Virus record (IMG/VR): IMGVR_UViG_3300027836_000010
Source of the DNA: an uncultured virus (IMG/VR IMGVR_UViG_3300027836_000010)
Taxonomy: Duplodnaviria; Heunggongvirae; Uroviricota; Caudoviricetes
DNA: 64,000 nt
Strand: one strand, 5' to 3'
The stretch's first letter is position 1. Every line of letters begins with the position of its first letter. Shown piece after piece: positions 5,520 through 47,000 of this stretch. The notes under the pieces were generated by a model that was not told the origin of the DNA, made no database searches, and worked only from the letters and a program-made list of their open reading frames with translations. The translations under genes and the position numbers were made by a program.

Positions 5520-5869
5520 TGAATAGTGTACAGATATTATCTGCTTGCCTAGCATGGTTAGTTTTAATAGGGTTGGTATATCGTCATATTACCTTTACTA
5601 AAATTAAAGAATGTTATGGCATGTGGTTTACAAAGGAATACTGGACCGACTACAATACTGTAGAGTTTGCTAGTTGGGCGGCTAAGGCCGTCATCATTGT
5701 TCCTGGCTTGATATTTGGTATAAGCATTTGGTGGTTGTATTTTTTCACACTTGCAACAAGTTTAACACTTATTTGGGCTAGTGAAAAGAAACTGTTACCA
5801 ACACTTGTAGGATTTAACACTATATGGGCTTGGATTAGCTGTATGGTATTGGCACAACATTTAATATGA
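5519..5869 (+). CDS. Small integral membrane protein
   Basis: 3-4 hydrophobic, Trp-rich segments; translationally coupled to its neighbours. Confidence 0.7.
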   Translation: MNSVQILSACLAWLVLIGLVYRHITFTKIKECYGMWFTKEYWTDYNTVEFASWAAKAVIIVPGLIFGISIWWLYFFTLATSLTLIWASEKKLLPTLVGFNTIWAWISCMVLAQHLI

Positions 5870-7572
5870 ATAAAAACTTAACAGCGGCACAAAACGATTA
5901 CGCATATTTCTTGCCAGCAACGTCAGGATTTTATAGCACTTATATAGGTAAGCAACGCTACAATAACTATGTAGATCCTGCTCGCATACCTAAGAGCTTT
6001 GGGCTTCTGGGCATTGAAGCTATGAACTATTTGAATCCAAACGCGGCATTTTACTTTGACCATTGTTTGTATTCAGCGGGTCATGCTAACTTAGACTTGA
6101 CTAAACCCGATCCTAGTGAAGATATGTTTCGTAATAGAGACCGTACAACTAGTTGGGTATTAGGCGACTCTGGAGGTTTCCAGATTGGTAAAGGTGTATG
6201 GGAAGGTGAATGGAATGATCCTACTGGAGCAGAAGTAGCACAACGTATGGCTGAAGCTGTGGCCAAGGGCATTGAACTTGTTCCGCAATTACACCCAACT
6301 GGTGATCCTAAAACAGATAAGAATGGCAATACCAAGTATACTAAAATTGACCATGTTAAGATTTATCAGTCAAAGCTAGATGCGGCACAAAAGAAGCGTG
6401 AACAAGTATTAACTTGGATGGACGCACTTATGGATTACGGCATGGTACTTGATATTCCAGCATGGGTTGGACGTAGTCCAGTTGGTGCTAAGAATAGCGG
6501 CATTGCTAGTTATGAACAAGCTGTTAGTGCTACCAAGTATAACAATAACTATTTTATCAAACACCGCACTGGTGCTTGTAAATTTTTAAACGTTTTACAA
6601 GGCGAAAATCACGCACAAGCAGAAGATTGGTATCAGCAAATGAAAGACTTTTGCGATCCAACAAAATATGAAAAACCATTCAACGGTTGGGCCATGGGCG
6701 GCCAGAACATGTGTGACGTGGATCTTGTATTACGTAGATTAGTGGCATTAAAGTTCGATGGACTCCTTGAAAAGGGTCATCAAGACTGGATGCACTTCCT
6801 GGGCACCTCTAAGTTAGAGTGGGCATTGTTATTAACTGACATACAACGAGCTATTAGGAAATATCATAATGAAAACTTTACCATCTCTTTTGACTGCGCC
6901 TCACCGTTCCTTGCCACAGCAAACGGACAAATCTATGTCCAAACAGAAATCAAAGACAGAGAAAAATGGCTCTACCGCATGTTGCCGTCTCTTGATGACA
7001 AAAAGTACAGCAAAGATACAAGACTCTTTCAAGACGTAGTAGTACAGGACAAACACTTTGAATCATTTACTACTAGTCCTTTAATGGACGGTGTAGAAGT
7101 TAAAGATATTTGTATCTACGGGCCTGGCGACCTAAATAAGATAGGTAAAGAAGGCAAAACTAGTTGGGACAGTTTCACTTATGCTATTATGATGGGCCAT
7201 AATGTTTGGTTACATTTGAACAGCGTACAAGAAGCTAATCGGCAATACGATGCTGGACTATGTCCTGCTATGCTAGTAGACGAAAAGTTTGAACGTGTAT
7301 ATTTTAAAGATGTAGTAGATGCTATCTTTAGTGCGCCAGATCAAGCTACTGCTATTGCTATTATTGACGGATTCGATAAATTTTGGCAAGCTATTCCAGG
7401 TACTCGTGGTGCTACTGGTAAGAAAACAGTTAATGCTAGTACTATGTTTTCCACTCTATTTGACGAAGTGGAAGAAGATAGTGTACAATTAGAAGATGAA
7501 GTAGATTTTGATGAATCTGCAATTGGTAAACTAGATGACTTGGAAGCACAATTACATAATGACGTTACCTGA
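5866..7572 (+). CDS. dpdA: TGT-fold transglycosylase, DpdA-like (inserts 7-deazaguanine into DNA)
   Basis: TGT motifs GDSGGFQ, VLDIP, NVLQG, GWAMGG, HFLG and SFDC. It has no C-terminal CxCxxC zinc site of tRNA TGT, and it clusters with queD, folE and queE in a phage. Confidence 0.75.
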   Translation: MNKNLTAAQNDYAYFLPATSGFYSTYIGKQRYNNYVDPARIPKSFGLLGIEAMNYLNPNAAFYFDHCLYSAGHANLDLTKPDPSEDMFRNRDRTTSWVLGDSGGFQIGKGVWEGEWNDPTGAEVAQRMAEAVAKGIELVPQLHPTGDPKTDKNGNTKYTKIDHVKIYQSKLDAAQKKREQVLTWMDALMDYGMVLDIPAWVGRSPVGAKNSGIASYEQAVSATKYNNNYFIKHRTGACKFLNVLQGENHAQAEDWYQQMKDFCDPTKYEKPFNGWAMGGQNMCDVDLVLRRLVALKFDGLLEKGHQDWMHFLGTSKLEWALLLTDIQRAIRKYHNENFTISFDCASPFLATANGQIYVQTEIKDREKWLYRMLPSLDDKKYSKDTRLFQDVVVQDKHFESFTTSPLMDGVEVKDICIYGPGDLNKIGKEGKTSWDSFTYAIMMGHNVWLHLNSVQEANRQYDAGLCPAMLVDEKFERVYFKDVVDAIFSAPDQATAIAIIDGFDKFWQAIPGTRGATGKKTVNASTMFSTLFDEVEEDSVQLEDEVDFDESAIGKLDDLEAQLHNDVT

Positions 7573-7804
7573 TGAAAGATACCGAGCAGTAGTACAGACT
7601 CAAAAGTTTTTAGTTGAGATTCTGTCTACTCCTCGAGTTCCAAAAGCTATTAAAGACCGAGCAAGAAGTTGTTTGCGTCATTATCCCAGCGACTGGGATA
7701 TGAAACGTGCAGCCGATAGTGCGCCTGATGTATTCCAAGAACAAATGGAAGCAGTAACCCGTTTGTTTAAATCCTACGAGGAAAAGAAAAATGAGCAAGC
7801 GTAG
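7559..7804 (+). CDS. Small conserved phage protein (BPSL0761-like)
   Basis: Pattern MTLPDERYRAV...PRVPKAIKDRARSCLRHYP. Confidence 0.55.
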   Translation: MTLPDERYRAVVQTQKFLVEILSTPRVPKAIKDRARSCLRHYPSDWDMKRAADSAPDVFQEQMEAVTRLFKSYEEKKNEQA

Positions 7805-8675
7805 TCTAGTAATTGGCATGGGCATTGGTAACTTGTACAAAGATGTACTAACAAAACTTGGGCATGAAGTAGTTACTGTAGATATGGATCCTGCTAAAGG
7901 CGCAGACTTTATCGATGTAGCATCCGCTATTCGTAAACATTCTTGGTTTGAAACTGCTCATATATGTACTCCAAATTTTACACATAAAGAGATAGCAGAG
8001 CAAGTTGCTCCTTATGCTAAAATTGTGTTTATTGAAAAACCAGGTCTTAAAAATAGTGAAGAATGGACTAACTTAATCAAAGTGCGGCCATTTACACGTT
8101 TTATAATGGTTAAGAATAACATGTGGCGAGATAACATTGCTGAGTTAGTTGAGTTAGCACATAAGGCTAAGACTGTTAAAATACGGTGGATCAGAAAGAA
8201 TTGTATTCCTAGTCCAGGAAGTTGGTTTACTACCAAGGATTTAGCGTTTGGCGGAGTTAGTCGAGACTTAATGCCACACTTGTTAAGTTTATATGTTGCT
8301 ATGAACCCTGAATGGAAACATGAAAATGTATCCGGGCAAACTGCCATGCAGTGTTGGGAATTAAAAGATATCGAAAGTACTGAATATGGCACAGTTAATC
8401 CCACTGGCACATATAATGTCGACGACATGTGTGTAATTAATTTTGGTAATAAATGGCGGTTGGCGGCCAATTGGCGTAGTCAGGACGAAGAAGATAGTTC
8501 TATTGCGTTTGTTATGCCAGATAATAAGATAGAACGATTTGAATTAGGTTGGTGTCCAGAAGAAGCGTATCACAATATGATTGTTGATGCTATTACTAAT
8601 ATAGATAATCCCGAGTTTTGGTTAAAGCAATATGCTATTGATACTTGGATTCATGAGAGAATAGAAAAACTATGA
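7791..8675 (+). CDS. Gfo/Idh/MocA-family NAD(P) oxidoreductase
   Basis: N-terminal Rossmann motif IGMGIG, plus ICTPNFTH, IEKPG and GGVSRDLMPH. Confidence 0.8.
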   Translation: MSKRSLVIGMGIGNLYKDVLTKLGHEVVTVDMDPAKGADFIDVASAIRKHSWFETAHICTPNFTHKEIAEQVAPYAKIVFIEKPGLKNSEEWTNLIKVRPFTRFIMVKNNMWRDNIAELVELAHKAKTVKIRWIRKNCIPSPGSWFTTKDLAFGGVSRDLMPHLLSLYVAMNPEWKHENVSGQTAMQCWELKDIESTEYGTVNPTGTYNVDDMCVINFGNKWRLAANWRSQDEEDSSIAFVMPDNKIERFELGWCPEEAYHNMIVDAITNIDNPEFWLKQYAIDTWIHERIEKL

Positions 8676-9550
8676 CACGCTGTTTACAAACAACAGGGCA
8701 AGGCTACTTTGAAGAAGTAACATACGATCTTCCGCCGTTAACCGAAAATGAAATATGTGTTCGTGCTGTTATGACCGGTGTTTGTCGTAGTGATATAGAT
8801 ATGATGAATGGTGACTTTGGGCCATTACCATTACACATGCAAGGTCACGAAGGACTGGGCGAAGTAATCGGTATCGGTGCTAACATTACTGATGTGAAAT
8901 TTGGTGACTATGTTGCTACACGCGGCGAACCTGCTTACGCAGATATTTATAATGTACGAAAAGACGAGTATGTACAAGTGCCCGAAGCACATCCACGTTA
9001 TATTCTCGAACCAGTTGCTTGCGGTATTAATGCTGTAAATGTTGCCGATTGTTCAAGACAAGATAAAATACTCATTATTGGAAGTGGGTTTTTAGCGTGG
9101 GTGGCTTATCACACGTTAACCAAATTTAAACATTGCGAAAATGTAGATGTATTAGGTTCTAGTAATATTGATCTCTGGGGAGATATATTACTATTAGGAA
9201 CTACCGATAGTTATGATGTAATCATTGACTTATCTGGAAAATATGAGCTAGGCATAGACATTAACCTAAATAACAATGCTCTAATCGTCGATGCTGTTGG
9301 TAAAGCAGTAAGTAGAGAAGAAGCACAACAACAACTTTGGAAGGCTGTTACTACTATTAAGCCAAGTCCACGAAATCCAAATTTTCATCAATGTATGAAA
9401 GACGCGGTATGGATGATTGAAAACGGCTATCTAGAGGTTGATTCTTTTTGGACTAGAGGTTATAATAGAAACATAGAGTGGCAACAAGCGTTTGCGGATG
9501 GTGTGGATCGTCCGAACGGTTACAGCAGAGGTTATATTAAATGGGACTAA
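8672..9550 (+). CDS. Zinc-binding (MDR) alcohol/sugar dehydrogenase
   Basis: Motifs GVCRSD, GHEGLGEV, LEPVACG and IIGSG. Confidence 0.85.
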   Translation: MTRCLQTTGQGYFEEVTYDLPPLTENEICVRAVMTGVCRSDIDMMNGDFGPLPLHMQGHEGLGEVIGIGANITDVKFGDYVATRGEPAYADIYNVRKDEYVQVPEAHPRYILEPVACGINAVNVADCSRQDKILIIGSGFLAWVAYHTLTKFKHCENVDVLGSSNIDLWGDILLLGTTDSYDVIIDLSGKYELGIDINLNNNALIVDAVGKAVSREEAQQQLWKAVTTIKPSPRNPNFHQCMKDAVWMIENGYLEVDSFWTRGYNRNIEWQQAFADGVDRPNGYSRGYIKWD

Positions 9551-10056
9551 ACACTGAAGAACGACAAGCTGTCGTTTACTTTACAGGTTACGAGGTCGAA
9601 CATACTATTTGTCATGGTATGAAAACATTGTTTGTAGTAGGCACACCTCCTATTGAAGAAATTTTAGAAAAAGCTTCAGCAAATGGGTGCCAGCATGTCT
9701 ACTTTGGTACCAGTCAAAGTTTTAATCCAACTGCTGTCACTCAAGAACAGTATAAGCCGTGGGACGATGTTATTTTACCATTGCTTAGATCCGGGTACTG
9801 GGTTAGTTTAGATTTTGATGTTAGGCATATTGAAGGAGTTATCGAATCTGGTTATAGCGAATATGATAAATTTGTTCCTATGATTAGTGTAAAAATTCCA
9901 TATATCAAACAACTTAATTACAATGCCACACTTAAGATAGACGATATCACGTGGGGCAAGACAAATTCAGGTGTTTGGACACATCAACTAAATGAATTGA
10001 TGACTAAAGACAAGTACACACACTGGGATCAATATACACAAGATACAACATTATGA
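9541..10056 (+). CDS. Hypothetical protein in the modification cluster
   Basis: 171-aa ORF overlapping both neighbours. Confidence 0.7.
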   Translation: MGLNTEERQAVVYFTGYEVEHTICHGMKTLFVVGTPPIEEILEKASANGCQHVYFGTSQSFNPTAVTQEQYKPWDDVILPLLRSGYWVSLDFDVRHIEGVIESGYSEYDKFVPMISVKIPYIKQLNYNATLKIDDITWGKTNSGVWTHQLNELMTKDKYTHWDQYTQDTTL

Positions 10057-10442
10057 TTATTAGACAAGATCAACGACCTAACAAAATGATTTGGGTTACT
10101 TTTCGCAAAGAAGGTATTCACAAATATCCAGCCGCACTTACAGACCCAGCACTTGCTACAGGTGATGAATATGATGTAAGTTTCCTAGGATATCCGCATC
10201 GTCACATCTTCCATTTTAAAGTATGGATCGGTGTTACACACGATGATCGCGATATCGAATTTATCCAGTTTAAACGCTGGTTGGAAAAATTGTACGCAGA
10301 CGGTACAGTCCAACTAGACTACAAGAGTTGTGAGATGATGTCAGGTGATTTATATGACGCCATCTCCAATAAGTATCCAGGCCGTGAGGTTTGGATTGAG
10401 GTCTCCGAAGACGGAGAAAATGGTTCATTTATCAAATACTAA
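10053..10442 (+). CDS. queD: QueD-like 6-carboxytetrahydropterin synthase (T-fold)
   Basis: His motifs EGIH...HRHIFH, plus SCE and C-terminal VSEDGENG; sits near folE, queE and the TGT-like gene. Confidence 0.72.
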   Translation: MIIRQDQRPNKMIWVTFRKEGIHKYPAALTDPALATGDEYDVSFLGYPHRHIFHFKVWIGVTHDDRDIEFIQFKRWLEKLYADGTVQLDYKSCEMMSGDLYDAISNKYPGREVWIEVSEDGENGSFIKY

Positions 10443-10455
10443 TAAGAAGGCTAAT

Positions 10456-10719
10456 ATGGCTAAGAATTACAACGACTACTCCTATTTCGAAAATCGTGCT
10501 GATGTTGTCAAAATTTTCGACGATTTGGAATCATTCCATAACTTTTGTCGTATGGAATTGATTGAGTTTAACGAGGCGTATCTCTACAATAGAGAAAGCT
10601 GGCAGTGGCGTAATTATGAAAAAAGCACACGCCCTCGCAAGGCTTGGACAGGCGAACGCAAACCGTACCAAGGAAAAAATCCTCGGCCGCAGTATAACAA
10701 CAATAAGTCTTATAATTAA
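10456..10719 (+). CDS. Hypothetical protein
   Basis: GAAGG RBS before the ATG at 10456; basic C-terminus. Confidence 0.6.
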   Translation: MAKNYNDYSYFENRADVVKIFDDLESFHNFCRMELIEFNEAYLYNRESWQWRNYEKSTRPRKAWTGERKPYQGKNPRPQYNNNKSYN

Positions 10720-10989
10720 ATGACTATTTTTCTAGTTGATCTAGAAGCAGTTGAGACACGGTACACGGGTCAGTGGAAGACCCATGTACCTGCTCTTTTA
10801 CGAAAGGCAGGACACGATGTTCAAATTATCTCTGGCCCTGAGGATATTCCTTCAGCCACTACTCCTGGTGCTTTTCTTAATTTTGGTGGCACCAATATAT
10901 ACAAGTCTAGTCAAGTTGAGCAAATGGGCAGGCTATTTTGTAACGGATCCGTTCATTCCTATGTTAGCAATGTTGGCTGTTCTGTATAA
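10720..10989 (+). pseudogene. Truncated 5' fragment of a GT-B glycosyltransferase
   Basis: It aligns by eye with the N-terminus of 13152-14267 (LE...TRYT.QW..HVP.LL; TPGAFLNF..TN..KS.Q). Similarity ends near 10955 and the frame stops at 10989. Confidence 0.85.
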
Positions 10990-10992
10990 ATA
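10985..10992 (+). promoter_or_regulatory. T4-type late promoter
   Basis: Exact TATAAATA about 65 nt upstream of the endonuclease ATG. Confidence 0.65.
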
Positions 10993-11055
10993 AAAGTGCC
11001 AGTCGCGATGCTACCAACATCCACTGACTCTAACAGTTTATTAGGAACTATCAGC

Positions 11056-11655
11056 ATGAATATTTATAGTAATATTCCATCACCGGAATTTAAGCCAACC
11101 TGGCTTTACATCAAGCAACACAATACCACCGGATTGAAATACTTTGGCAAGACTACCAAAGACCCACAGGCCTATTTAGGTTCCGGCAAGTATTGGTTGC
11201 GACACTTAAAAGAACACAGCGAAGATATCACAACTGTTTGGTGTGAAGAATTTACTAACATAGATCAGTTAGTAGAGTTTGCCACATTCTTTAGTGAATT
11301 CCACGATATAGTTGATGCTGTAGATTCCCGGGGCAAGAAAGTATGGGCCAATATGATTCCAGAGAATGGATTAGATGGTGCTCCTGCTGGAGTCAAAATG
11401 CCCAGCACCAGTAAGTCCAATGCTATCCATAAGAAAGGTATAACACCTTGGAACAAGGGCAAGGCAACTGGACCTGCTCCTCATATAGCAGAATCCAACA
11501 AGCGTAGGAAAGGCGTGCCTTCTGGTAGATTGGGTGTTTCAACTTCTCTAAAAGGAACACCGCAACCTGTTATTGTTTGCCCTCACTGTGACAAGCAAGG
11601 TGGAGTTAGTGGAATGAAAAGATATCACTTTGATAACTGTAAGGAAAAGAAATGA
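11056..11655 (+). CDS. Free-standing GIY-YIG-like (Seg-type) homing endonuclease
   Basis: N-terminal WLYIKQH..TGLKYFGKT...YLGSG.YW, NUMOD3-like PWNKGK segments and a C-terminal CPHC...H...C zinc ribbon. Confidence 0.8.
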   Translation: MNIYSNIPSPEFKPTWLYIKQHNTTGLKYFGKTTKDPQAYLGSGKYWLRHLKEHSEDITTVWCEEFTNIDQLVEFATFFSEFHDIVDAVDSRGKKVWANMIPENGLDGAPAGVKMPSTSKSNAIHKKGITPWNKGKATGPAPHIAESNKRRKGVPSGRLGVSTSLKGTPQPVIVCPHCDKQGGVSGMKRYHFDNCKEKK

Positions 11656-11915
11656 ACGAACGAATTCAACAACTTGCTGAACAGGCTGGCTATCAAAAAG
11701 ATTCGTTTGGTGTTGGTCATTGGGATATGCCAGAGTGTAAAAAGTTCGCCGAGTTGATTGTGAAGGAATGTATCAACCGTGAAGAATTGCTGGGTGCCAT
11801 TGCCCGAGGTTGGTGTAGTGAAAAGAACTCACACAAAACTATGGATCCAGATTTGGCATTGGCCATATTTGATGAAGTAGAACGACAGATTAAACAACAG
11901 TTTGGAGTTGAATAA
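11652..11915 (+). CDS. Small phage hypothetical protein (MNERI...KFAELIV...FGVE type)
   Basis: ATGA-coupled ORF with a sequence pattern common among phage small proteins. Confidence 0.7.
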   Translation: MNERIQQLAEQAGYQKDSFGVGHWDMPECKKFAELIVKECINREELLGAIARGWCSEKNSHKTMDPDLALAIFDEVERQIKQQFGVE

Positions 11916-12076
11916 TGGGATGGCGATATGAAGTTAATGTATGGGATAACGCAGTCGATGGGCCTTACTATTGGCTACAGATTTACGCTGGCCCTAGCAT
12001 AATCCAAGCCATCTACAACATGTGGTGGGCAAAACGCAATGGCTGGAAATGTATTAAACTGGAGTATAGACCGTGA
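11915..12076 (+). CDS. 53-aa hypothetical protein (below the ORF-track cutoff)
   Basis: MGWRYEVNVWD...KCIKLEYRP; TAATG-coupled upstream, GTGA-coupled downstream, with a GGAG RBS. Confidence 0.6.
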   Translation: MGWRYEVNVWDNAVDGPYYWLQIYAGPSIIQAIYNMWWAKRNGWKCIKLEYRP

Positions 12077-12321
12077 GAGTAGAATTTCATCAAGGTGTGC
12101 CTGAAGGTTGTACCGAATGGTTAAACCAACATGTAGGCAAGGGCAATATGACCGGCCTTGTTGACAACTACGATTATGCCTGGTTCTACCGGCGTGAGCG
12201 TGTTTATCCGCAACCACATGAAGCATTTGATCCTCGTGACTTGGGACCAAAATATGTGCCCACTATCACAGTGAAAGATCCCAAGTTGGCAACATGGTTT
12301 GCGTTGAGGTGGAGTTCATGA
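12073..12321 (+). CDS. Small protein ending WFALRWSS (unit 1)
   Basis: GTG start with a GGAG RBS; ends in the 25-bp junction repeat. Confidence 0.7.
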   Translation: MRVEFHQGVPEGCTEWLNQHVGKGNMTGLVDNYDYAWFYRRERVYPQPHEAFDPRDLGPKYVPTITVKDPKLATWFALRWSS

Positions 12322-12521
12322 ACAAGGTAGAAAAAACATCATATCCAGGTTGGAATAAGTTTCCTGTTTATCAATGTAGGCGGACCGATGACTGGCATGA
12401 AATCAGTTCTTGGATGTATAAGAATGGGTGTGATCCGTTTTTGTTAAGTTCGGGTGGTACTGGATACATATTTCAAGTAAGAGAAAACTTTGCGTGGTTT
12501 GCGTTGAGGTGGAGTTCATGA
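12318..12521 (+). CDS. Small protein ending WFALRWSS (unit 2)
   Basis: The start ATG lies inside the repeat (ATGA overlap), with a GAGGTGG RBS. Confidence 0.7.
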   Translation: MNKVEKTSYPGWNKFPVYQCRRTDDWHEISSWMYKNGCDPFLLSSGGTGYIFQVRENFAWFALRWSS

Positions 12522-12733
12522 GAGTTCTAAAGAAAGAACTATGGCCACACAAGGTAGCAGTCAATGTGGAAGGACCAACACCCGAAAAGATTGACGATAT
12601 TGAAGCATGGCTTGGCGAACACTATGGGGCTTTTAAAAGTCGGTGGAATGCTGTCTATCACCATAACGGAACAGACTATTATTTCCGTCAAGGTCGGGAT
12701 GCTACTATGTTTGCGTTGAGGTGGAGTTCATGA
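12518..12733 (+). CDS. Small protein ending MFALRWSS (unit 3)
   Basis: The start ATG lies inside the repeat. Confidence 0.7.
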   Translation: MRVLKKELWPHKVAVNVEGPTPEKIDDIEAWLGEHYGAFKSRWNAVYHHNGTDYYFRQGRDATMFALRWSS

Positions 12734-13086
12734 GTAGTTCGGAAATCAAAGGTCTATTCTTCTTGCCGTCGGGCAGATACATACCAATGGGTCTCAACAT
12801 CTGGCAACAACTTTGGTGGCGGTTCGTGCCCGGAGTTGTGGTCAATGTAAAGTGGCCCAAAGGGTGGGTAGTGCTTCATGAAGCACCCGATGGATCATGT
12901 GTATCCACAGAGTCAGCGGATCCAAATGATCACTATCGTCCTTGGATGGAACAGCATGTTGGTCGGCAAGGTCGAGACTGGAACTGGGGCATGGCAGATA
13001 GAGATGCCACTGACAACAGGTTAACCATAAAGATTAGACAGAAATATGCCAAGTATGCTACAATAGCGGCAATACAGTGGAGTTGA
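12730..13086 (+). CDS. Small protein ending AAIQWS (unit 4)
   Basis: Starts inside the third repeat; its end keeps the GTGGAGTT core. Confidence 0.7.
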   Translation: MSSSEIKGLFFLPSGRYIPMGLNIWQQLWWRFVPGVVVNVKWPKGWVVLHEAPDGSCVSTESADPNDHYRPWMEQHVGRQGRDWNWGMADRDATDNRLTIKIRQKYAKYATIAAIQWS

Positions 13087-13104
13087 AGAATGAGCAAAAT
13101 ATAT

Positions 13105-13133
13105 TTGACCTATACCCCACTTTACTATATAAT
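13105..13133 (+). promoter_or_regulatory. Sigma70-type promoter for the intact glycosyltransferase
   Basis: TTGACC-N17-TATAAT, followed by an AGGAG RBS and a TTG start. Confidence 0.7.
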
Positions 13134-13151
13134 GTAGTATAGGAGACAATT

Positions 13152-14267
13152 TTGAAATCAACAATATGGATATTCTCACTGGAGCCCATTTCTACACGCT
13201 ACACTGAACAGTGGCACAGTCATGTGCCCCTACTACTTAAGAACAAGTTAGGCGACAGGTTTAATGTGGTTCAGGTAGATGGCATTCAGAAGAACAGCCA
13301 ACTGACTCCGGGTGCGTTCTTAAACTTTTCTGATACTAACTATTGGAAGAGTGCTCAAATGTGTGCGTTCTTGGAACAGCACAATCAAGGCAAGACCAGT
13401 CCCAACGATCACTTTATCTTTACAGATGCGTGGAACCCCACAGTGATCCAACTGAAATATATGTCAGATCTATTAGGCTTCAACTGGACTTTACACGGCC
13501 TATGGCATGCTGGCAGTTATGACCCACAAGACTTCTTAGGTCGCCTTGTTGGCAATAAACCTTGGGTAAGACACGCTGAGAAGAGTTTTTATCATTCGTT
13601 CGATTATAACTACTTTGCTACACAGTTTCATATTGAAATGTTTTTTACTAATCTCTTACAAGACGGCCCAGTTAGTGAAAATCCTTGGTATGAAGAAGAC
13701 CTGGCGGAATTACGTGCTGGCATACTTACAAATAAAATTGTACGCACAGGCTGGCCAATGGAGTATATGAATGATATCTTGCTCCCGTATAAAGGAATGC
13801 CCAAGCGTGATCTCATCTTGTTTCCACATCGCATTGCTCCAGAAAAGCAAGTTGAAATCTTCCGTGATTTAAAAGAACATTTGCCGCAATATGAATTTGT
13901 AGTATGTCAGGATCAACAACTGACTAAGAACGAATATCACAATTTGTTAGGTGAAGCTAAGTTAGTGTTCAGTGCTAACTTGCAAGAAACGCTCGGCATT
14001 AGTTGTTATGAAGGAGCAGTTGTAGGCGCTGTTCCTATGGTTCCGGATAGACTTAGTTACTCTGAAATGTATTACGATACTTTCAAATACCCTAGCGAGT
14101 GGACTGAGAGTTTTGACTCTTATCTAAAATATCGTAATAACCTGTGTTTTGCTATCATGCAACATATGGATCATTACTCTACCCGGATACCAAGTATACA
14201 CAAACAAGCAAAGGATTTACATGACAATTTCTTCAGCGCAACTGGATTGCTTGACAATATCAAGTGA
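13152..14267 (+). CDS. GT-B fold (group 1-like) glycosyltransferase
   Basis: FPHRIAPEKQ and the EX7E motif QETLGISCYEG, followed by PMVPDRLSYSEMY. Confidence 0.8.
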   Translation: MKSTIWIFSLEPISTRYTEQWHSHVPLLLKNKLGDRFNVVQVDGIQKNSQLTPGAFLNFSDTNYWKSAQMCAFLEQHNQGKTSPNDHFIFTDAWNPTVIQLKYMSDLLGFNWTLHGLWHAGSYDPQDFLGRLVGNKPWVRHAEKSFYHSFDYNYFATQFHIEMFFTNLLQDGPVSENPWYEEDLAELRAGILTNKIVRTGWPMEYMNDILLPYKGMPKRDLILFPHRIAPEKQVEIFRDLKEHLPQYEFVVCQDQQLTKNEYHNLLGEAKLVFSANLQETLGISCYEGAVVGAVPMVPDRLSYSEMYYDTFKYPSEWTESFDSYLKYRNNLCFAIMQHMDHYSTRIPSIHKQAKDLHDNFFSATGLLDNIK

Positions 14268-14658
14268 TATTGGAATAATAGCACAAGATGTTGATACTAT
14301 TTTATCTGATACAATTACACTAACTAGCGGTACTGGTAGTAGTTACTATTATACCGGCGCTGGCGTTGGCGGCAGTACAGGAACTATTACTATTTCCGGA
14401 GCAGGTGCTAGCGGCACCAGTTATACGATTGGTGGAGCAGGATCTGGAGGGTTTGCCGGTATTACCGCACAGAATATTAGCACCTTTAATTGGAATTTAA
14501 ACGAAGAGTTTGTTAACTGTCTTCCGGATCTTGAAAGAGTTAAAAAAATGTGCGAAGAATATCCCGGTTTGAAAATAGCCTACGAAAAATTTGTTACAAC
14601 TTATAAACTAGTAAGAGATGATTATGATACTCCAAAAGATAAAAGACCTAAGCCTTAA
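14221..14658 (+). CDS. Hypothetical protein with a Gly/Thr-rich N-terminus
   Basis: ORF with a helical C-terminus (MCEEYPGLKIAYEKF). Confidence 0.6.
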   Translation: MTISSAQLDCLTISSDIGIIAQDVDTILSDTITLTSGTGSSYYYTGAGVGGSTGTITISGAGASGTSYTIGGAGSGGFAGITAQNISTFNWNLNEEFVNCLPDLERVKKMCEEYPGLKIAYEKFVTTYKLVRDDYDTPKDKRPKP

Positions 14659-15082
14659 CTGGTTAGAGCGTCATGATCGCAAACGCATTATTATGGATCG
14701 ACAATGTAACGAGCCATTGCTAACTCGTTACTATTTGTTTTTAAAAGATCGTAAGACATTTCCATTCAACATATTCTTACACAAGTTTCATAAAGGCGAT
14801 CCCGGAGATGTACATGATCATCCGTGGCCGTACTTTACACTAATACTAGCAGGTGGTTACTACGAATGGGTACTTAGTGGTAATTGTGAAGTACGTAAAT
14901 GGCGTGGGCCTGGACATTTTAGATTTTGTAGTGCTAACAGCTATCACCGTATTGAATTAAAAGAAGGTGTTACGCCCTGGACCTTGTTTATGCCCGGGCC
15001 ACAAACAAGAGAATGGGGATTCCTTGTTGATAATAAATGGATTCATAATGACAACTATCTTGAAGAACGTAAAAACAGTTAA
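14618..15082 (+). CDS. Cupin-fold protein
   Basis: Metal-binding cupin pattern HDHPW...GGYYE...HRIEL...WTLF. Confidence 0.65.
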   Translation: MIMILQKIKDLSLNWLERHDRKRIIMDRQCNEPLLTRYYLFLKDRKTFPFNIFLHKFHKGDPGDVHDHPWPYFTLILAGGYYEWVLSGNCEVRKWRGPGHFRFCSANSYHRIELKEGVTPWTLFMPGPQTREWGFLVDNKWIHNDNYLEERKNS

Positions 15083-15467
15083 CAATATTGGCCCTGGATA
15101 TGGTGCTGTGCCTACTATTTCTACTGCTCCGTTAACTATTGGGCAAGTTTACACAACCAACAGTACCGCTGGCCAGTTTTTAACAAGTGCTACTAACGGA
15201 ACAAATTGGGCAAATTCAAATGACAACGTAATGATTGTTAAACAAGATCCTGCTAGTTTAGAAGTTAAAGGTCGAATGATCATTAACGGTGTTGACTTAG
15301 AAGAACGGTTAAAGACAATCGAACGAGTATTGACTATTCCCGAAAGAGATGTTAAACTAGAAGCTAAACATCCAAAGCTAAAGAAACTGTATGATGAATA
15401 CATTGCGGCGTTGGGTAAGTATAGAACATTTGAAGCAATTAAAGGAGAAGAAAATGGAACTACATGA
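15048..15467 (+). CDS. Hypothetical protein
   Basis: Thr-rich N-terminus and a helical C-terminus (HPKLKKLYDEY). Confidence 0.6.
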   Translation: MTTILKNVKTVNNIGPGYGAVPTISTAPLTIGQVYTTNSTAGQFLTSATNGTNWANSNDNVMIVKQDPASLEVKGRMIINGVDLEERLKTIERVLTIPERDVKLEAKHPKLKKLYDEYIAALGKYRTFEAIKGEENGTT

Positions 15468-15684
15468 ATCAGTTGCGCATACTCGCAGAGAAATGACTAT
15501 TAAAGAAAGCGAAGGTTTTCGTGTACGTGTAACAAAACACGAAGTGATTAATCCTAAGGGACTGTTTAGTCTTGATATTATTCAAGAAAGTTTGAAAGAC
15601 GGTAAAGTAATCGATAGTCAAACATACAATTTCTTTATGACTAAAGATGAGTTACAAACACTGGCGCACGGATTAACTTTATAA
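15454..15684 (+). CDS. Hypothetical protein
   Basis: AGGAG RBS before MELHES. Confidence 0.6.
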   Translation: MELHESVAHTRREMTIKESEGFRVRVTKHEVINPKGLFSLDIIQESLKDGKVIDSQTYNFFMTKDELQTLAHGLTL

Positions 15685-15905
15685 TGACTGATGATCAATT
15701 ACAAGAGTTATACGACAAATATCTCGATTTTACTGTTAGTATGATTGCTGACAGTAATACATTGTCGGTTGCCGCTATCATGATGGCCCAGGCACTTAGC
15801 ATTTACAAAACTGCTATGAATGACGAAGAATACAATGCAATGGTCGATAATATTTCAGCAAGTCGAGACCAAGTTAAACAGTTTACAGGGCCGTCATTAC
15901 AATGA
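15684..15905 (+). CDS. Hypothetical protein
   Basis: Translationally coupled ORF. Confidence 0.6.
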   Translation: MTDDQLQELYDKYLDFTVSMIADSNTLSVAAIMMAQALSIYKTAMNDEEYNAMVDNISASRDQVKQFTGPSLQ

Positions 15906-16420
15906 AAAAGATTTATTATACATGGCAACAGATAGAAGGTGCCTGTTTAGATATTGCTCGACAGATTAATAATAGCAACTGGCGACCTAATTATATTGTA
16001 GGTATTACTCGTGGTGGGCTTGTTCCAGCAGTATTGCTAAGTCAATATTTAGAAGTTCCTATGAAGTCATTAGACGTAAGTTTACGAGACGGCGGAGATT
16101 GTGTAAGCAACTGCGGTATGTCTGAAGATGCCTTTGGCTATAACGCATCTGAACTAGGCGACCCGCTTTGTCAAAATATCCTCATTGTTGATGACATCAA
16201 TGATCAAGGTTCTACTATTTCTTGGATTAAGCAGGACTGGCAATCTAGTTGTTTGCCTAACGATGCTCGCTGGGAGCATGTATGGGGACAGAATGTACGC
16301 TTTGCTACACTTACTAACAATCTAAGTAGCAAGGAAGATGTTGACTATTCAGTATGGGAAGTTAACAAAGCAGAAGAAGATTGTTGGTTAGTTTATCCTT
16401 GGGAGGATTTTTGGAAATGA
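15902..16420 (+). CDS. Type I purine phosphoribosyltransferase (xanthine/guanine PRT-like)
   Basis: GITRGGLVPA, the PRPP-binding motif ILIVDDINDQGST and a C-terminal WLVYPWE. Confidence 0.85.
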   Translation: MKKIYYTWQQIEGACLDIARQINNSNWRPNYIVGITRGGLVPAVLLSQYLEVPMKSLDVSLRDGGDCVSNCGMSEDAFGYNASELGDPLCQNILIVDDINDQGSTISWIKQDWQSSCLPNDARWEHVWGQNVRFATLTNNLSSKEDVDYSVWEVNKAEEDCWLVYPWEDFWK

Positions 16421-16614
16421 TGACATCATTAATTAAACTTATTTTTGGAATTACGTTGATATTGTTAGTAATTGTATTTGGGCCATTACTTGGTATCTGG
16501 TCGCTTAATACACTATTCCCAGTGTTAGCAATTCCATATACGTGGCAAACTTGGGCCGCCTACTTCTTAATTTTTGGCAGTTTAACCGGTTTACGCTTTG
16601 GATCTAAAAAATGA
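16417..16614 (+). CDS. Small membrane protein
   Basis: Two hydrophobic segments. Confidence 0.55.
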   Translation: MMTSLIKLIFGITLILLVIVFGPLLGIWSLNTLFPVLAIPYTWQTWAAYFLIFGSLTGLRFGSKK

Positions 16615-16766
16615 GTGAGTTAACTATCGAAGATCTTAAAGAGCGCATTGAAAAAATTAAGCAAGACTTAGTTGATCAATCTGGTCGAAAGTATGAAGTA
16701 CTAATGGAGTATAAATCGTACTTGGAAGACGAACTGGAAATGTTAAAGCGTGAACAAAGACAATAA
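16611..16766 (+). CDS. 51-aa coiled-coil hypothetical protein
   Basis: MSELTIEDLKERIEK...; fills a gap in the gene run and is ATGA-coupled. Confidence 0.55.
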   Translation: MSELTIEDLKERIEKIKQDLVDQSGRKYEVLMEYKSYLEDELEMLKREQRQ

Positions 16767-16956
16767 TACTGTTACAGTAGTATGGGATAACCAGAATGGA
16801 TTCTGGTGGAACGAAACTTGTGCTATGGTATTAGAAGTATTTGGCTTGCCGGGTGATAGGTATGAATCAAAACCCGATCACGATTATATGAGTTTTAATT
16901 TTAAAAATCAAAAGGATGCTGATCTATGCCGAATACTTCTTTCCGAGAGACTATAA
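16750..16956 (+). CDS. Hypothetical protein
   Basis: ORF in the operon. Confidence 0.55.
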   Translation: MNKDNNTVTVVWDNQNGFWWNETCAMVLEVFGLPGDRYESKPDHDYMSFNFKNQKDADLCRILLSERL

Positions 16957-17150
16957 AAATAGCAGTAGCTATCATTGTATTTCTAATAGTAGTACCTATA
17001 TTATTTTTAGTACTACCTAAAAAATCAGACGGTGTTTGGATTAATTGCGGACTTTCCGAAATTAGTCCAGATTTCACAAATGAAATGCGCGAAGCGTGTA
17101 GGCAAGCTAGAATAAAAAATATTCAAAACGATATACAAAAACCTAAATAA
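16926..17150 (+). CDS. Small membrane-anchored protein
   Basis: One hydrophobic helix and two Cys residues. Confidence 0.55.
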   Translation: MPNTSFRETIKIAVAIIVFLIVVPILFLVLPKKSDGVWINCGLSEISPDFTNEMREACRQARIKNIQNDIQKPK

Positions 17151-17201
17151 GAGTGTATAATAAACATATGGCAATACCTCTGCCTTAACATAGGAAAATT
17201 A

Positions 17202-18035
17202 ATGACAAACGAATTTAAACCAGATCCGACAATGAACGCTCCTGACCCTCGAGAGTTTATTGAGGACAAATACGAGCCATTAGGCAAGCCCGTATATATT
17301 AAAAAAGAAACAGCACTTGACGCAATGGCAGGTGATGGCGGATATCAAGAAGCATACCTAGGCGATCATCTTCGCTTTAAAATGAAACGTGAAGGTAAAC
17401 GGTTTTGGGCTGGCGATAATATTAGCGACTTCTTGCACGAAGGCGATAAAGAAAAACTAATCGATGAAGCAACAGAAGCATTTGAAACTGTACTAGATCG
17501 ATTACTTATTGATCGTGAAAATGATCCTAATAGTCAAGGCACAGCACGTAGACTTGCCAAGATGTACTTTAATGAAATAATGGCAGGTAGATATGAACAA
17601 GCACCAGACGCAACAGCGTTCCCAAATGATACAGAGGACCGTTACGAAGGTATGTTGGTTGTTCGTAGCGAGCTTCGCAGTATGTGTAGCCATCATCACC
17701 AACCCGTTGCTGGCGTTGCTTATATTGGTATTATTGCGGCTCAGAAACTCATCGGACTTAGCAAGTATACAAGGATCGCTCAGTGGTGTGCCCGTCGAGG
17801 TACTCTCCAGGAGGAACTTTGCAATGACATTGCTAGGGAAATCCAAAAAGCTACAGGAGCAACAGACTTAGGTGTATACATTCAAGCAACACATGGTTGT
17901 TGTGAGAATAGAGGCATTATGGCTCATAGTTCATTAACACAGACTACTGTGTTAAAAGGTGCGTTTAAAGATGACCATGGTACAAAGAAAGAGTTTTTTG
18001 ACAACATTAAACTACAGCAGGAATATTCAAGATGA
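17202..18035 (+). CDS. folE: GTP cyclohydrolase I
   Basis: Motifs TARRLAKMY, SMCSHH, GLSK, LQEEL and HGCCENRG. Confidence 0.93.
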   Translation: MTNEFKPDPTMNAPDPREFIEDKYEPLGKPVYIKKETALDAMAGDGGYQEAYLGDHLRFKMKREGKRFWAGDNISDFLHEGDKEKLIDEATEAFETVLDRLLIDRENDPNSQGTARRLAKMYFNEIMAGRYEQAPDATAFPNDTEDRYEGMLVVRSELRSMCSHHHQPVAGVAYIGIIAAQKLIGLSKYTRIAQWCARRGTLQEELCNDIAREIQKATGATDLGVYIQATHGCCENRGIMAHSSLTQTTVLKGAFKDDHGTKKEFFDNIKLQQEYSR

Positions 18036-18424
18036 TAGTTACACAACCGCCTGCTGAAGGTATAATGAAAACAAACGACTGGGGAGATAGTCGAGTTTAT
18101 CGAATTGCTTGTAACTGCGGTGATGAAAATCACAATCATAACATGTGGGTCGAAGCAGACGATTGCGATATCATTGTAACCATTTATACTACGGGCAAAA
18201 CAAACTATTGGTCTAAGACACGCTGGTATCATATTTGGACATTGTTAACTAAAGGATATGTTGATACAGAGTCAAGTGTTCATTTGAATCGACAACAGGC
18301 ACTTAACTACGCAGAAACATTGAAAAGCGCCATACACGATGTCGAAGTCTTTCGTAATAATAGACAAAACAAAGAAGAACGTGCTATAGTAAAAAAAATG
18401 GCAAATGAACAGGATTGTATATGA
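18032..18424 (+). CDS. Hypothetical protein
   Basis: Coupled ORF with a CNC..H motif. Confidence 0.6.
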   Translation: MIVTQPPAEGIMKTNDWGDSRVYRIACNCGDENHNHNMWVEADDCDIIVTIYTTGKTNYWSKTRWYHIWTLLTKGYVDTESSVHLNRQQALNYAETLKSAIHDVEVFRNNRQNKEERAIVKKMANEQDCI

Positions 18425-18651
18425 ACACTGCAAAACAACTAACAGACGAACTTATCTATCGTATGAAAACTACTGACCTAAATAAGTTTGAAATTAAACG
18501 TGAAGTAGGCGAGAATTGGTTACCACAAGGTACAGTACCGTTTGATCTGTATGCTAGTAAAGGTGTTGCTACTTTTACGGTATGGGCGGAATCAATTCAA
18601 GATGCGGAGCATCAAGTAAGTCAGTTTTTAGAAAGAGATGAAGATGAGTAA
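18421..18651 (+). CDS. Hypothetical protein
   Basis: Translationally coupled ORF. Confidence 0.55.
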   Translation: MNTAKQLTDELIYRMKTTDLNKFEIKREVGENWLPQGTVPFDLYASKGVATFTVWAESIQDAEHQVSQFLERDEDE

Positions 18652-19498
18652 AATTAAAATAGCGGAACTGTTTTACAGTATCCAAGGTGAAGGACGCTAC
18701 ATGGGCGTCCCGTCTGTGTTTCTACGGACATTTGGTTGTAACTTCAAATGTGCTGGGTTTGGTATGCCACGCGATACAATTAGTATTGAAGCAGATGACA
18801 TTGCTTACACCCACGCAAACATTGAGTCTTTTCAAAAATATGAAGAGCTTCCGTTGGTAAGTACAGGGTGCGACAGTTATGCTAGTTGGCATCCTGCGTT
18901 TAAGGATCTAAGTCCAATGCTTACTAGTGAAGCTATTGCTGATCGTATTATGGAAATTCTTCCGCAAGATCATTGGAAAGATGAACACTTGGTTATTACA
19001 GGCGGTGAGCCTTTACTAGGTTGGCAACGTGCTTATCCAGACTTAATTAATAATACTAAGATGCGCGACTTAAAAGAGATCACATTTGAAACAAATGGTA
19101 CTCAACGTCTTACACCAGAGTTTAAAGGCTTCCTAGCTAAATGGAATAGTGTAGTGGGTAGAGAACTTACATTTAGTGTAAGTGCTAAACTTCCATGCAG
19201 TGGCGAAAAGTGGGAGGAGGCAATCCTTCCAGAAGTAGTTTGCGAGTACGAAGAAGTTGGCACAGCATACTTGAAGTTTGTTATTGCTACAGAACAAGAC
19301 TTTGCTGACGCAGAGTGTGCTATTGCCGCTTATCGTACAGCAGGGTTTAAAGGACACGTATATCTAATGCCAGTGGGTGGTGTAGAAAGTGTCTACGCAA
19401 TGAATAATAAAAATGTAGCATTGTTGGCTATGAAAAACGGACTACGTTATAGTGACCGTTTACAAGTGCCGTTATTTAAAAATGAGTGGGGTACATAA
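18638..19498 (+). CDS. queE: 7-carboxy-7-deazaguanine synthase (radical SAM)
   Basis: Motifs ELFYSIQGEG, FLRTFGCNFKC...GCD, ITGGEPLL, FETNG and LKFV. Confidence 0.9.
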   Translation: MKMSKIKIAELFYSIQGEGRYMGVPSVFLRTFGCNFKCAGFGMPRDTISIEADDIAYTHANIESFQKYEELPLVSTGCDSYASWHPAFKDLSPMLTSEAIADRIMEILPQDHWKDEHLVITGGEPLLGWQRAYPDLINNTKMRDLKEITFETNGTQRLTPEFKGFLAKWNSVVGRELTFSVSAKLPCSGEKWEEAILPEVVCEYEEVGTAYLKFVIATEQDFADAECAIAAYRTAGFKGHVYLMPVGGVESVYAMNNKNVALLAMKNGLRYSDRLQVPLFKNEWGT

Positions 19499-44048: not shown

Positions 44049-47000
44049 TTATCCTTGATCCCACGTTCCAATTGTGCTGTCGTATGTGCCGGCTTCGCTA
44101 TCAAAATTATTTGGTATTCCGGCAGTGTTCTCATATTTACCAATATTTGCGTACCAAATGGCCGGTGCGGCTTTGAGGAATCTAGCAATTTTACTGTCAT
44201 CTTCAAGAACACTTGTTGTAGAATCCCACGGCGTTAGTGTGCGCTTAACTACAGTAACACGAGTTCCGAACTCAAGTTTATTAGTTAATACTAGCTGTTT
44301 ACTCTCACCGTCTACTGTAAATTCTGCCGGTAAACTAACATTACCCTCTGGGCTTTCTGGATGTATGTTTACGTTATGAACTGCGTAAGGCTTTTTCTTT
44401 AAACGAATATTACCAACAAAGAATGTCCATTTAGCCGTGTCAGTAGTAAACACAGCAGAGCTAGTATGTTCTACAACACAACGATAAGTGTAACTGCCGA
44501 CCTCAACAATATCATCTACTTTGTAGATAACAGTTGAACTCCAAGGCACACTTGAATAGCCGCCAACAAACACTTCAATGTCCGATGGCCAAGAAGTTGT
44601 TACATTACTTGCATTAGTTTCCTCATATAACCCTGGGACAAATGATAACGGTACTATGTTAGTGCCGTCAGATTTAACCTGATCAATTGTACTTGTTTCA
44701 ATGTACGGAATTGTTTCGCTTGCGCCAATGTCTTGTACATACGAACCTAATTTATGAACACGACTTACTCCAGTACCCAAAGTACCTCTACGCAACTGCC
44801 CCATAGTCCAAGTTGTTACAGCATTTAATCCTGTTCCAACAGTTTGAGATGTTAGAGTAAAGAACTCAATACGCTCGCCTCGAATTTCAATAATACCAGG
44901 CTTGTTGTTTGGTATACTAGGAGCATCAAAGTTACTAGCGTCTTCAACCTTGATAGTAATATCGTTATACTTTAAATCATTAACAAGTCTAGTTCTCTTG
45001 TTGGCATTTAAACGTTTGTAGTGTGTTCTGTTTAACATGTCTTTAAATTGCATGTAAGAAATTCCACTAGTTAGTACAGCACTACCGTAGGTAATAATTG
45101 TAAATTCATCAGCAGGATCTGGGTACAACGCTAATTTAATACTTTGTCTATCTTCGTTTAATTTAAAGTCAACGCTTGGTGTTAGTAAAGAACCATTCTT
45201 AATAACCCACACATAGTTGTCGTCAATAACGGATCTATCTAGCTTAATTGTGCCGCCTGCTAAGTTTCTATAATCGTAAAATGCCGGAGTATCAACCGTC
45301 AATACTAAATCGCTAGTAGTTTTAACAGCAGTACGTTGGATATTTAGAATGTCATGTTTATAAGAACTAATAACTTCAATCAATTGATTGCTGTCATAAG
45401 ATTGTGTAAACTCAATGCGGGCAGGTGTAAGAAGTGTTTTTGGAACATAGGTATATTCTTGTCCTTGACTAACGCTAATAATTAATTCTTTATTCAAATA
45501 TCTTGAGCGAATACTTTGATTAATCTTAACAGTAATACCAGAGATATCAACAATATAATCAACTCCAGATTGTAGCAAATTACCATCGGCATACACTACA
45601 ATATCTACAATAGATAATGAGTATGGAAGGAACTTTGCTGGGTCAACTGCGTAATTAACTCGTGTACCAGCTATAGTATAGAAACTTTGATTAGGACCTT
45701 TAAGTATTCGTTGGTCAACTCTTACTAGCATTTTTGATTCTACTGGTAAACTGTCGCCAACTTCATATTGTAAATCGTACAAGTCCGAACCGTTGCCTTG
45801 GAATCGTTGAGTCTTAGTAATAGAATATGTCTGCTCGTTGCCGCTAACAATGACATAATTAATCAATGAGCCGGCTGTTGGGGGAATACTAAAGAACAAG
45901 CCAAATCTATCAGCACTATCATAACTAGCATCAGTTCTAAATAATTCAGGAGTTCCAGGTTCAGCAGGAAGTCCGTTAACATAAACAAGATACGTTGCGC
46001 TAGGTACCCATGGCGCCTTAGTAATGAATTCAGTAGTTGAACCATCACCTATAAAATAATCTAAATCTAGTATACCAGAACCATTAAATCCAAAACTAAA
46101 AATTGAAACTAATTTACCTGCTGCCGGAGCAGTATTAAAATTAACAAGTCGATTTTTATAATCAATAGTGTAATCGTCTGTTAGTGTTTGAATCTCAGAT
46201 AATGATGACAATATTCCATCTATATCACGTTGCCCTTCTGTAAATTTAACAATCACTGCGGTTGGGCTATTTGGTTGCTGTGTAATTACAAACGAAGTAG
46301 TTACTCCGTCAGCAATGTAACTATCAACTTTAATGTTGGCGCTACCACTGCTTGGTCTGTCATATATTTTGATAGCAACAGCGTCAACAACTTGTCCTGG
46401 TACAACTTCTTCCGTAGCGGGACTTGTCGTTGGCGTTACAAATCCGTCACCGTCAACAATAATGTCGTCTGCGGCTAATCCAGTAGCACTTAATAAGTTA
46501 GTTGCTAAAAAACTGCCGCCACTTAAAGAAGTGTCATAATCTGCTTCTTGAGGACTAACTGCTCCGTCGCTAGAACTCTTGCGCCAGATAAATTTATCAC
46601 CATCACCAACAGTAAATGTTCCTGGCACACTAAACGTTTTGTATGTAGGATCAATTAACGAATCAGGAACCCCATCAGAAATGATTGTTTGCATAATTGC
46701 GCTGTCATTTTGTATTGGAGGTAAACTATCATATAACGCCTGTGCGGCAGTTACTTCTAATTGCTTAGTTGCTCTATTAGTTGCGTTAGTTGCTAAATTG
46801 TTATCAATAGTGGCTAAATCGTCTGTTGATGTAGCAATTGCATCCTCTGCAGCTGGAATAGAAGTATTAGTTAAGATATTAAGTTGACTTACAATTCCAG
46901 GGTACAGTGGGTTTGACGGCGACATACCAGCTAAAATAATGTTCAGCGAATTTAATTCTAATTGTAATGTGTATAACTGATTATTTAAATCTGCCAAATT

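Follow-up and report, generated by a model that had tools for sequence, protein, structure and literature searches.

Why should a glycosyltransferase (GT) gene of a phage begin twice, once as a stub and once more, beyond a nuclease gene and a string of small open reading frames (ORFs), as a full-length gene with a different start? The question is raised by an uncultured tailed phage, IMG/VR record IMGVR_UViG_3300027836_000010, of which the first 64 kb of a 77.7-kb contig were analysed (64,000 nucleotides, hereafter the window); DNA near-identical to the window comes mainly from freshwater metagenomes. The gene encodes a GT of the GT-B class, and it is occupied by an element of 2.5 kb (10960 to about 13492) that contains the gene of a nuclease with a predicted GIY-YIG fold, six small cargo ORFs, a promoter-like site, and foreign (type B) GT codons 1-113. 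Our answer, which we hold to be very probably right, is that the element is a cassette that inserts at a fixed site in the GT gene, fuses to it a foreign 5' third and a predicted promoter, and spreads as its nuclease cuts the resident (type A) allele, the incoming version being resistant. Its parts are as follows.

10720-10989, plus strand: type A (resident) GT stub of 89 codons, homologous to intact genes as far as 10959
10960-10984, plus strand: left tail of the element, with four junction variants across carriers
10985-10992, plus strand: TATAAATA, a T4-type late-promoter match overlapping the stub stop codon, invariant in 7 of 7 aligned carriers
10998-11028, plus strand: bulged 11-pair hairpin in the nuclease leader
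11056-11655, plus strand: GIY-YIG-fold endonuclease (predicted), 199 aa, with a C-terminal Cys/His finger
11652-11915, plus strand: cargo 1, 87 aa, of the MNER...FGVE family of small phage proteins
11915-12076, plus strand: cargo 2, 53 aa, phrog_10015 (unknown function)
12073-12321, plus strand: cargo 3, 82 aa, with a 27-nt repeat (12295-12321) at its end
12318-12521, plus strand: cargo 4, 67 aa, with the repeat (12495-12521) at its end
12518-12733, plus strand: cargo 5, 71 aa, with the repeat (12707-12733) at its end
12730-13086, plus strand: cargo 6, 118 aa
13105-13145, plus strand: element-borne sigma70-type promoter-like site (13105-13133) and ribosome-binding site (RBS; 13141-13145)
13152-13492, plus strand: type-B module brought in by the element: GT codons 1-113, roughly the leading half of the N-terminal Rossmann domain
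13493-13590, plus strand: crossover zone (HGLWHAGSYDPQDFLGR)
13493-14267, plus strand: resident-type (A lineage) rest of the GT-B enzyme
13152-14267, plus strand: full GT, 371 codons, TTG start

The stub matches the beginnings of intact GTs up to 10959 (codon 80) and no further; over its first 79 residues it is 87-96% identical to the GT starts of the best 80 viral loci, and it is 46% identical (32 of 69 residues) to the GT that lies downstream. The first-pass annotation of this DNA, made from its letters alone, had the resident gene losing its match after about 79 codons and a full GT with a homologous, divergent N-terminus following it, and it presupposed uninterrupted relatives; all of this held, down to the motifs that it quoted. 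The stub frame is still open in most carriers, and in L003, L009, L023, L244 and L245 the stub is only 6-16 codons long. Its likely role is that of a left homology arm. A +1-frame ORF over the stub (10751-10993) had seemed conserved and was discarded as a by-product, since 109 of the 111 intact A genes have that frame open.

The composite nature of the downstream gene emerged from 127 distinct full-length proteins, 111 of type A (with the start seen in the stub) and 16 of type B (with the start of the window GT). The types are told apart by 32 diagnostic columns in positions 1-112 (one of them the start column) and by none in 115-371, and the window GT is 46% identical to the A-type protein of L018 over residues 1-113 and 81% identical thereafter. 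A tree of the N-terminal part separates A and B with a support of 1.00, whereas in a tree of the C-terminal part B is scattered among A. An approximately unbiased (AU) test on 24 of the 127 rows rejected a single B clade in the C-terminal part (p 3e-45), a figure to be read with the reservation, unfavourable to our account, that the groups were named from the N-terminal part, yet after a first C-terminal tree had been seen. One ancestry shared by both halves, which the first-pass annotation had named among the findings that would sink its proposal, was not found.

That the GT is a chimera is proved by a near-isogenic pair, L241 (of which L159 is the same contig) with the element and L032 without it. 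The two are 99.97% identical across 3858 nt upstream, up to GT base 245 (codon 82), and from L032 codon 111 onwards they agree again, apart from 4 mismatches over the following 772 nt; their GTs differ almost exclusively in the swapped module. Between these points L241 has lost 84 resident bases, coding for the DHFVFTDAWHPG to IPV segment, of which the B module holds a diverged counterpart. The flanks of a second pair are 97% identical; here L056 is intact, and L023 has a 15-codon stub, no nuclease, a cargo remnant and a B start, and reverts to the L056 sequence later in the gene. The proposal that the intact GT joins an incoming N-terminus to a resident C-terminus is thus borne out by the L241/L032 pair, the diagnostic columns and the trees alike. 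The crossover had been predicted near 13490-13545; resident alleles in read sets join the window sequence at 13493, at the HGLWHAGS motif, and the crossover in this genome lies between 13493 and about 13590. Because L161 retains resident sequence to about codon 87, the predicted cut zone narrows to codons 87-110.

The ratio of nonsynonymous to synonymous substitution rates (dN/dS) of the B module is 0.03-0.13 (six pairs), which shows it to be under purifying selection. Two loci, L251 and L252, may represent the native B lineage, since they have no stub and their C-terminal part is distant. In L160 the B module (5886-6263) is a mosaic in its turn, about 22 codons of element type giving way to a diverged B variant, and in L001, L238 (duplicated by L321) and L240 a B-type GT with an element-type RBS stands outside the usual gene neighbourhood.

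The distribution of the nuclease was equally telling. Six of 80 nuclease loci are 77-96% identical to that of the window, and all six follow a GT stub; near the remaining 74 no GT match was found, nor was there a close nuclease relative in any of the 111 intact A loci. Exact matches to the leader in metagenomes, several of which duplicate viral contigs, were at the GT site in 17 of 17 cases; 16 of them show the stub, and the remaining one starts a little ahead of the same junction. The nuclease of L160 is 93% identical, against 37-46% for the flanking genes upstream of it. The A-type motif of an element-free target is absent from the 77.7-kb genome piece. The element is fixed to one site and has spread horizontally across divergent backbones, and the earlier view of a mobile nuclease cassette within a decapitated resident gene is upheld by these counts and by the pairs with and without the insert. 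The same B module goes with no fewer than four left junctions and with three types of nuclease: nuclease-like ORFs lie between short A stubs and B-type GTs in L244 and L245 (5022-5951, minus strand), where the late-promoter context is identical to that of the window element, and in L009 (4969-5916, minus strand). The L244/L245 and L009 ORFs were labelled HNH-like and GIY-YIG-like by eye, and hidden Markov models found no nuclease match in them. The nucleases of L303 (617-1333) and L312 (4073-4669) share stub and leader, and are 56% identical overall, the C-terminal half in L303 being different and rich in NUMOD3; judged by their sequences, this would be a swap of DNA-binding domains at the same site.

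The nuclease was studied by means of a structural model, with a predicted local distance difference test score (pLDDT) above 90 for its N-terminal domain, and an alignment of 42 sequences. Its motifs LYI (17-19) and YFG (29-31) lie on a beta hairpin (strands 15-22 and 28-33); L17 and Y29 are invariant, and Y18, I19 and G31 are present in at least 90% of the sequences. The best structural match was the catalytic domain of I-TevI (Z 7.3, root-mean-square deviation 2.9, 81 residues; the next row scored 4.9), followed by Endo II, Slx1 and UvrC. Pfam GIY-YIG was matched weakly by 4 of the 42 family members, the window protein not among them, and NUMOD3 by 30 of 42; for the nuclease of the window, searches of Pfam, PHROGs and NCBIfam gave weak PHROG matches only. 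A dN/dS of 0.05-0.11 (five pairs) shows that the nuclease is under purifying selection.

On these grounds we envisage the following cycle. During co-infection the late-expressed nuclease would break the type-A gene at about codons 87-110 (FTDAWHPG to IPV), where A and B differ at fixed bases. The break would be repaired on the donor, with homology supplied on the left by the stub and on the right by the HGLWHAGS motif, and because these are the two arms, everything between them would be copied, cargo included. The new promoter and RBS would restore one full-length enzyme, for which reason the stub, and later the nuclease, could decay. Cargo ORFs would be gained and lost through recombination at their shared, RBS-bearing ends.

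Several observations weigh against this account. This nuclease is missing from 12 of the 16 distinct full-length B genes, and the B loci that lack it hold other nuclease-like ORFs in some cases and only stubs in others; six show no stub by pattern search. Six loci of a single lineage (L125, L296, L298, L301, L304 and L305) have an incoming GT that is broken at codon 30, and the remainder was not found in the 2.7 kb after the broken copy in L305; a search for DNA past this point returned only the same short contig. Because of these six loci, either rescue is not universal or the rest lies beyond the contigs, and the first-pass claim that the element restores GT function fits the window, where the GT ORF is full length, but not that lineage. 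As for the nuclease, Foldseek likewise ranks I-TevI first but weakly (E 0.41), PDB sequence searches, blank or at chance level overall, gave no meaningful match for it, and there is no conserved Glu at the usual helix (69-82). The conserved central Arg listed as defining for the GIY-YIG superfamily (PMC1564403) is absent from the invariant and near-invariant columns of the 42 sequences, and since this Arg is not conserved, the protein is filed, on the strength of its model, as a GIY-YIG fold with a non-canonical active site and not as a canonical member. N99 and E103, invariant in the family, may supply the C-terminal metal-binding Glu of the superfamily. The GIY-YIG-like endonuclease and six cargo ORFs of the first-pass annotation are both present, the former with a matching predicted fold, but without the conserved Arg. 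Finally, a long hairpin that would hide the RBS, a tentative feature, folds no better than shuffles in the window (z -1.1); in L163 its z is -3.2.

The B genes without this nuclease invite an account in which it is the phage that gains: the B N-terminus would be selected for another acceptor or sugar that evades host defences, it would travel by ordinary recombination, and nucleases would hitch-hike. B does persist without this nuclease in those 12 of 16 loci, under purifying selection, it is accompanied by three unrelated nuclease-like genes, and B-like motif variants were found in cultured phages (PA5oct and ACP17, Phosso having an A-like motif). Plain allele exchange, however, explains neither the stub, nor the new promoter, nor a nuclease dN/dS under 0.11; the L241 crossovers fall exactly at both homology edges; and B is the rarer type, with about 17 B-type among 59 matches to a B-query pattern against an estimated 1200 for an A query, a rough comparison of different patterns. 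We regard this account as unlikely, and still less can be said for a nuclease that homes to a distant site in the manner of T4 Seg enzymes, with the GT swap a frozen, co-converted accident of one insertion. Free-standing T4 nucleases do cut hundreds to thousands of bases from their own genes, according to the accessible text of PMC2988022; in L241, however, conversion is limited to the 84-nt zone between identical flanks, which leaves no room for a distant site, and the several junctions and nuclease types with the same B module also make the proposal highly improbable.

The open stub frame of most carriers, and known cases in T4-like phages such as MobA or the mobE of Aeh1, could suggest that stub and downstream ORF are a split gene, spliced or working as two subunits. 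We give this very little credence, as the downstream ORF is full length and was modelled as a whole GT-B enzyme (pLDDT 90), the nuclease is a separate ORF inside no intron or intein, Rfam gave no match at E up to 1 within 10400-14400, and stubs can be as short as 6-16 codons. A chimeric assembly of two strains, which would have undone the first-pass proposal, is next to inconceivable. The sample is rich in related alleles, and no single contig of the runs X1 and X2 spans the whole stretch; run X1, which may be where this DNA comes from, gave zero-difference contigs over 10876-11666 and 13041-13644, and run X2, from another study, one over 13254-13586. Nevertheless, the whole arrangement recurs in independent contigs (L002 and L159), so that the layout is no assembly artefact, and L002, L159, L163, L310 and L312 have it with different backbones and cargo, which refutes the idea.

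The cassette as we read it depends on expression signals of its own. The first-pass annotation gave the replacement GT a promoter and RBS, and a predicted promoter site, TTGACC-17-TATAAT at 13105-13133, and the RBS AGGAG at 13141-13145 are indeed present. The site scores 11/12, is among the two best of 26 in 7 kb, and is kept in other carriers; since shuffled sequence yields 19.7 promoter-like sites, the number of sites alone is not above chance. The promoter module also reads as a 15-codon mini-ORF (13089-13136) starting MSKIYL, reminiscent of some A-type GT starts, which may be chance or the remnant of a cargo start. Ahead of the nuclease, TATAAATA conforms to what we take to be the T4-type late-promoter consensus; the genome piece shows no enrichment, with 6 such sites against about 12 expected, and of the 5 further sites 3 directly precede ORFs. 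An ORF of genome C1 (68208-69065) resembles a late sigma factor of the T4 gp55 type, and another (72845-73279) a further GIY-YIG-type protein.

A bulged hairpin lies between the TAAATA site and the nuclease start in the window (10998-11028) and in L164, L173, L174, L176, L182, L190, L193, L214, L215, L220, L224, L228 and L250. In 15 leaders, picked by eye from 40 plus the window, 9 of its 11 pairs have compensatory changes, with 44 double changes and no G-U pairs; it matched no Rfam family. Such strong covariation without G-U pairs is the reason to think that the hairpin might act as DNA. Its inner stem resembles the A-type FTDAWHP codons, and because similar stems occur in leaders at other sites, a role as operator is a weak lead only.

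The cargo is the most variable part of the element, ranging from 226 to 1437 nt among the measured carriers and differing in content in each. Three of the window cargo ORFs end in the 27-nt repeat, which holds the RBS and start of the next gene, and the run X2 contig lacks precisely cargo 4 and 5, the ORFs between repeats. No function was found for the cargo in Pfam and PHROGs searches. In L163 (5641-7306) the small cargo ORFs are replaced by an ATPase-like ORF, with a P-loop motif seen by eye, and an ORF with nuclease-type repeats; in L305 (1376-4154) about ten small ORFs, mostly cargo-1 paralogues of the MNER...HFGVEE family, follow the broken B GT. The G+C content of the insert is only slightly higher than that of its surroundings (0.42-0.48 versus 0.35-0.44).

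Among known systems, the MobA element of T4-like phages is close in its workings: in the accessible text of its description (10.1101/2022.08.31.505936) it occupies a fixed coding-gene site, deletes 55-75 nt and supplies a homologous region with the cut site, and its nuclease is replaceable by other families or lost afterwards. The short target deletion (84 nt in L241) and the element-borne homologous replacement are shared. As far as that text goes, however, MobA divides a topoisomerase between two polypeptides that are both needed and have short extensions, and it has a ribosomal bypass, whereas the present element brings 113 codons, a promoter and an RBS, one whole protein, a disposable stub and variable cargo. 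It works like MobA yet is not a member of it, given the single full-length ORF and the 6-16-codon stubs of relatives. Hybrid genes of fungal mitochondria (Allomyces atp6; Glomus atp6, atp9, cox2 and nad3), to judge from the portions available of PMC3630166, likewise combine an endonuclease with a foreign gene end, the displaced native end matching close relatives and one hybrid gene being expressed; here the stub is up to 96% identical to intact A genes and the B module 46%. There it is the 3' end that is exchanged, in mitochondrial DNA, and the host promoter is kept; here it is the 5' end, in a phage and with cargo, so that the element has to supply expression signals itself. The phage element mirrors the fungal arrangement at the 5' side of the gene, with a promoter and cargo added.

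T4 Seg nucleases, in the sections at hand of PMC2988022, share the free-standing GIY-YIG-type gene, late promoter and flank co-conversion, and differ in being intergenic and cutting at a distance, whereas the present element lies within the gene that it is predicted to target, a part of which it duplicates. Homing-endonuclease gene islands resemble it in that nucleases mark where exchanged DNA begins and ends, bring cargo along and can replace one another at a locus, but they exchange whole genes between two nucleases, and partial-gene replacement is not described in the accessible part of their account (PMC10448857). No report of a phage element that replaces the 5' third of a gene with its promoter was found in the literature, subscription journals being mostly outside the scope of the search. 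What is new is the rescue of a whole gene by a 5' third and promoter, with reshuffling cargo. A homing nuclease can enter its own target gene intron-free by carrying a working, diverged spare gene start, and thanks to natural empty/filled pairs the predicted cut can be placed within fewer than 84 bases. Through the element, half of a domain is exchanged in an enzyme linked to DNA modification, and cargo passes between phages with about 40% identity in their neighbouring genes; trees and annotations of this GT family will be misled by it.

The enzyme itself was modelled with GT-B topology and two Rossmann domains, and comparison of the model with the PDB gave 276 matches with E no higher than 0.001, glycogen synthase, BshA and MshA being the foremost; no significant match to the window GT was found in Pfam, PHROGs or NCBIfam. 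The N-terminal domain is the acceptor side in GT-B enzymes, and the swap spans about half of it. The suggestion of the first-pass annotation that the swap alters the modification chemistry found no support: A and B have 30 invariant positions in common within the swapped part, unchanged chemistry is the most likely outcome, and a changed sugar chemistry would be possible but not supported. Three neighbouring genes bear on the pathway.

10053-10442, plus strand: T-fold-type protein containing LxxxHRH, DpdL-like by our reading; its identity to the ORF that follows the GT of phage ACP17 is 55%
17202-18035, plus strand: FolE, 7-deazaguanine pathway
18638-19498, plus strand: QueE-like radical SAM gene, 7-deazaguanine pathway

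In ACP17, PA5oct and Phosso, as here, the GT has FolE, QueE and a DpdL-like gene around it, a likeness to the DpdL/DpdA3 7-deazaguanine systems (PMC10516641), in the accessible main text of which the term 'glycosyl' does not occur. A bolder notion, doubtful as it stands, is that of a gene drive for phage DNA chemistry, in which several unrelated homing nucleases would compete for a GT site of the 7-deazaguanine pathway, force an alternative acceptor-binding half-domain upon it and so switch the modification of the phage genome, the cassette being in addition a mobile array that gathers small genes. More widely, genes for a Gfo/Idh/MocA oxidoreductase, a zinc dehydrogenase, a cupin and a phosphoribosyltransferase, along with FolE, QueE and a TGT-like gene, lie around the GT (5866-9550 and 14618-19498). 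The 568-aa gene at 5866-7572 we take to be TGT/DpdA-like from the DSGGFQ motif; its pairwise comparison with the ACP17 neighbour gave E 0.086. Far from the locus, an ORF of 5041 aa (44049-59174, minus strand) stands among structural-looking genes.

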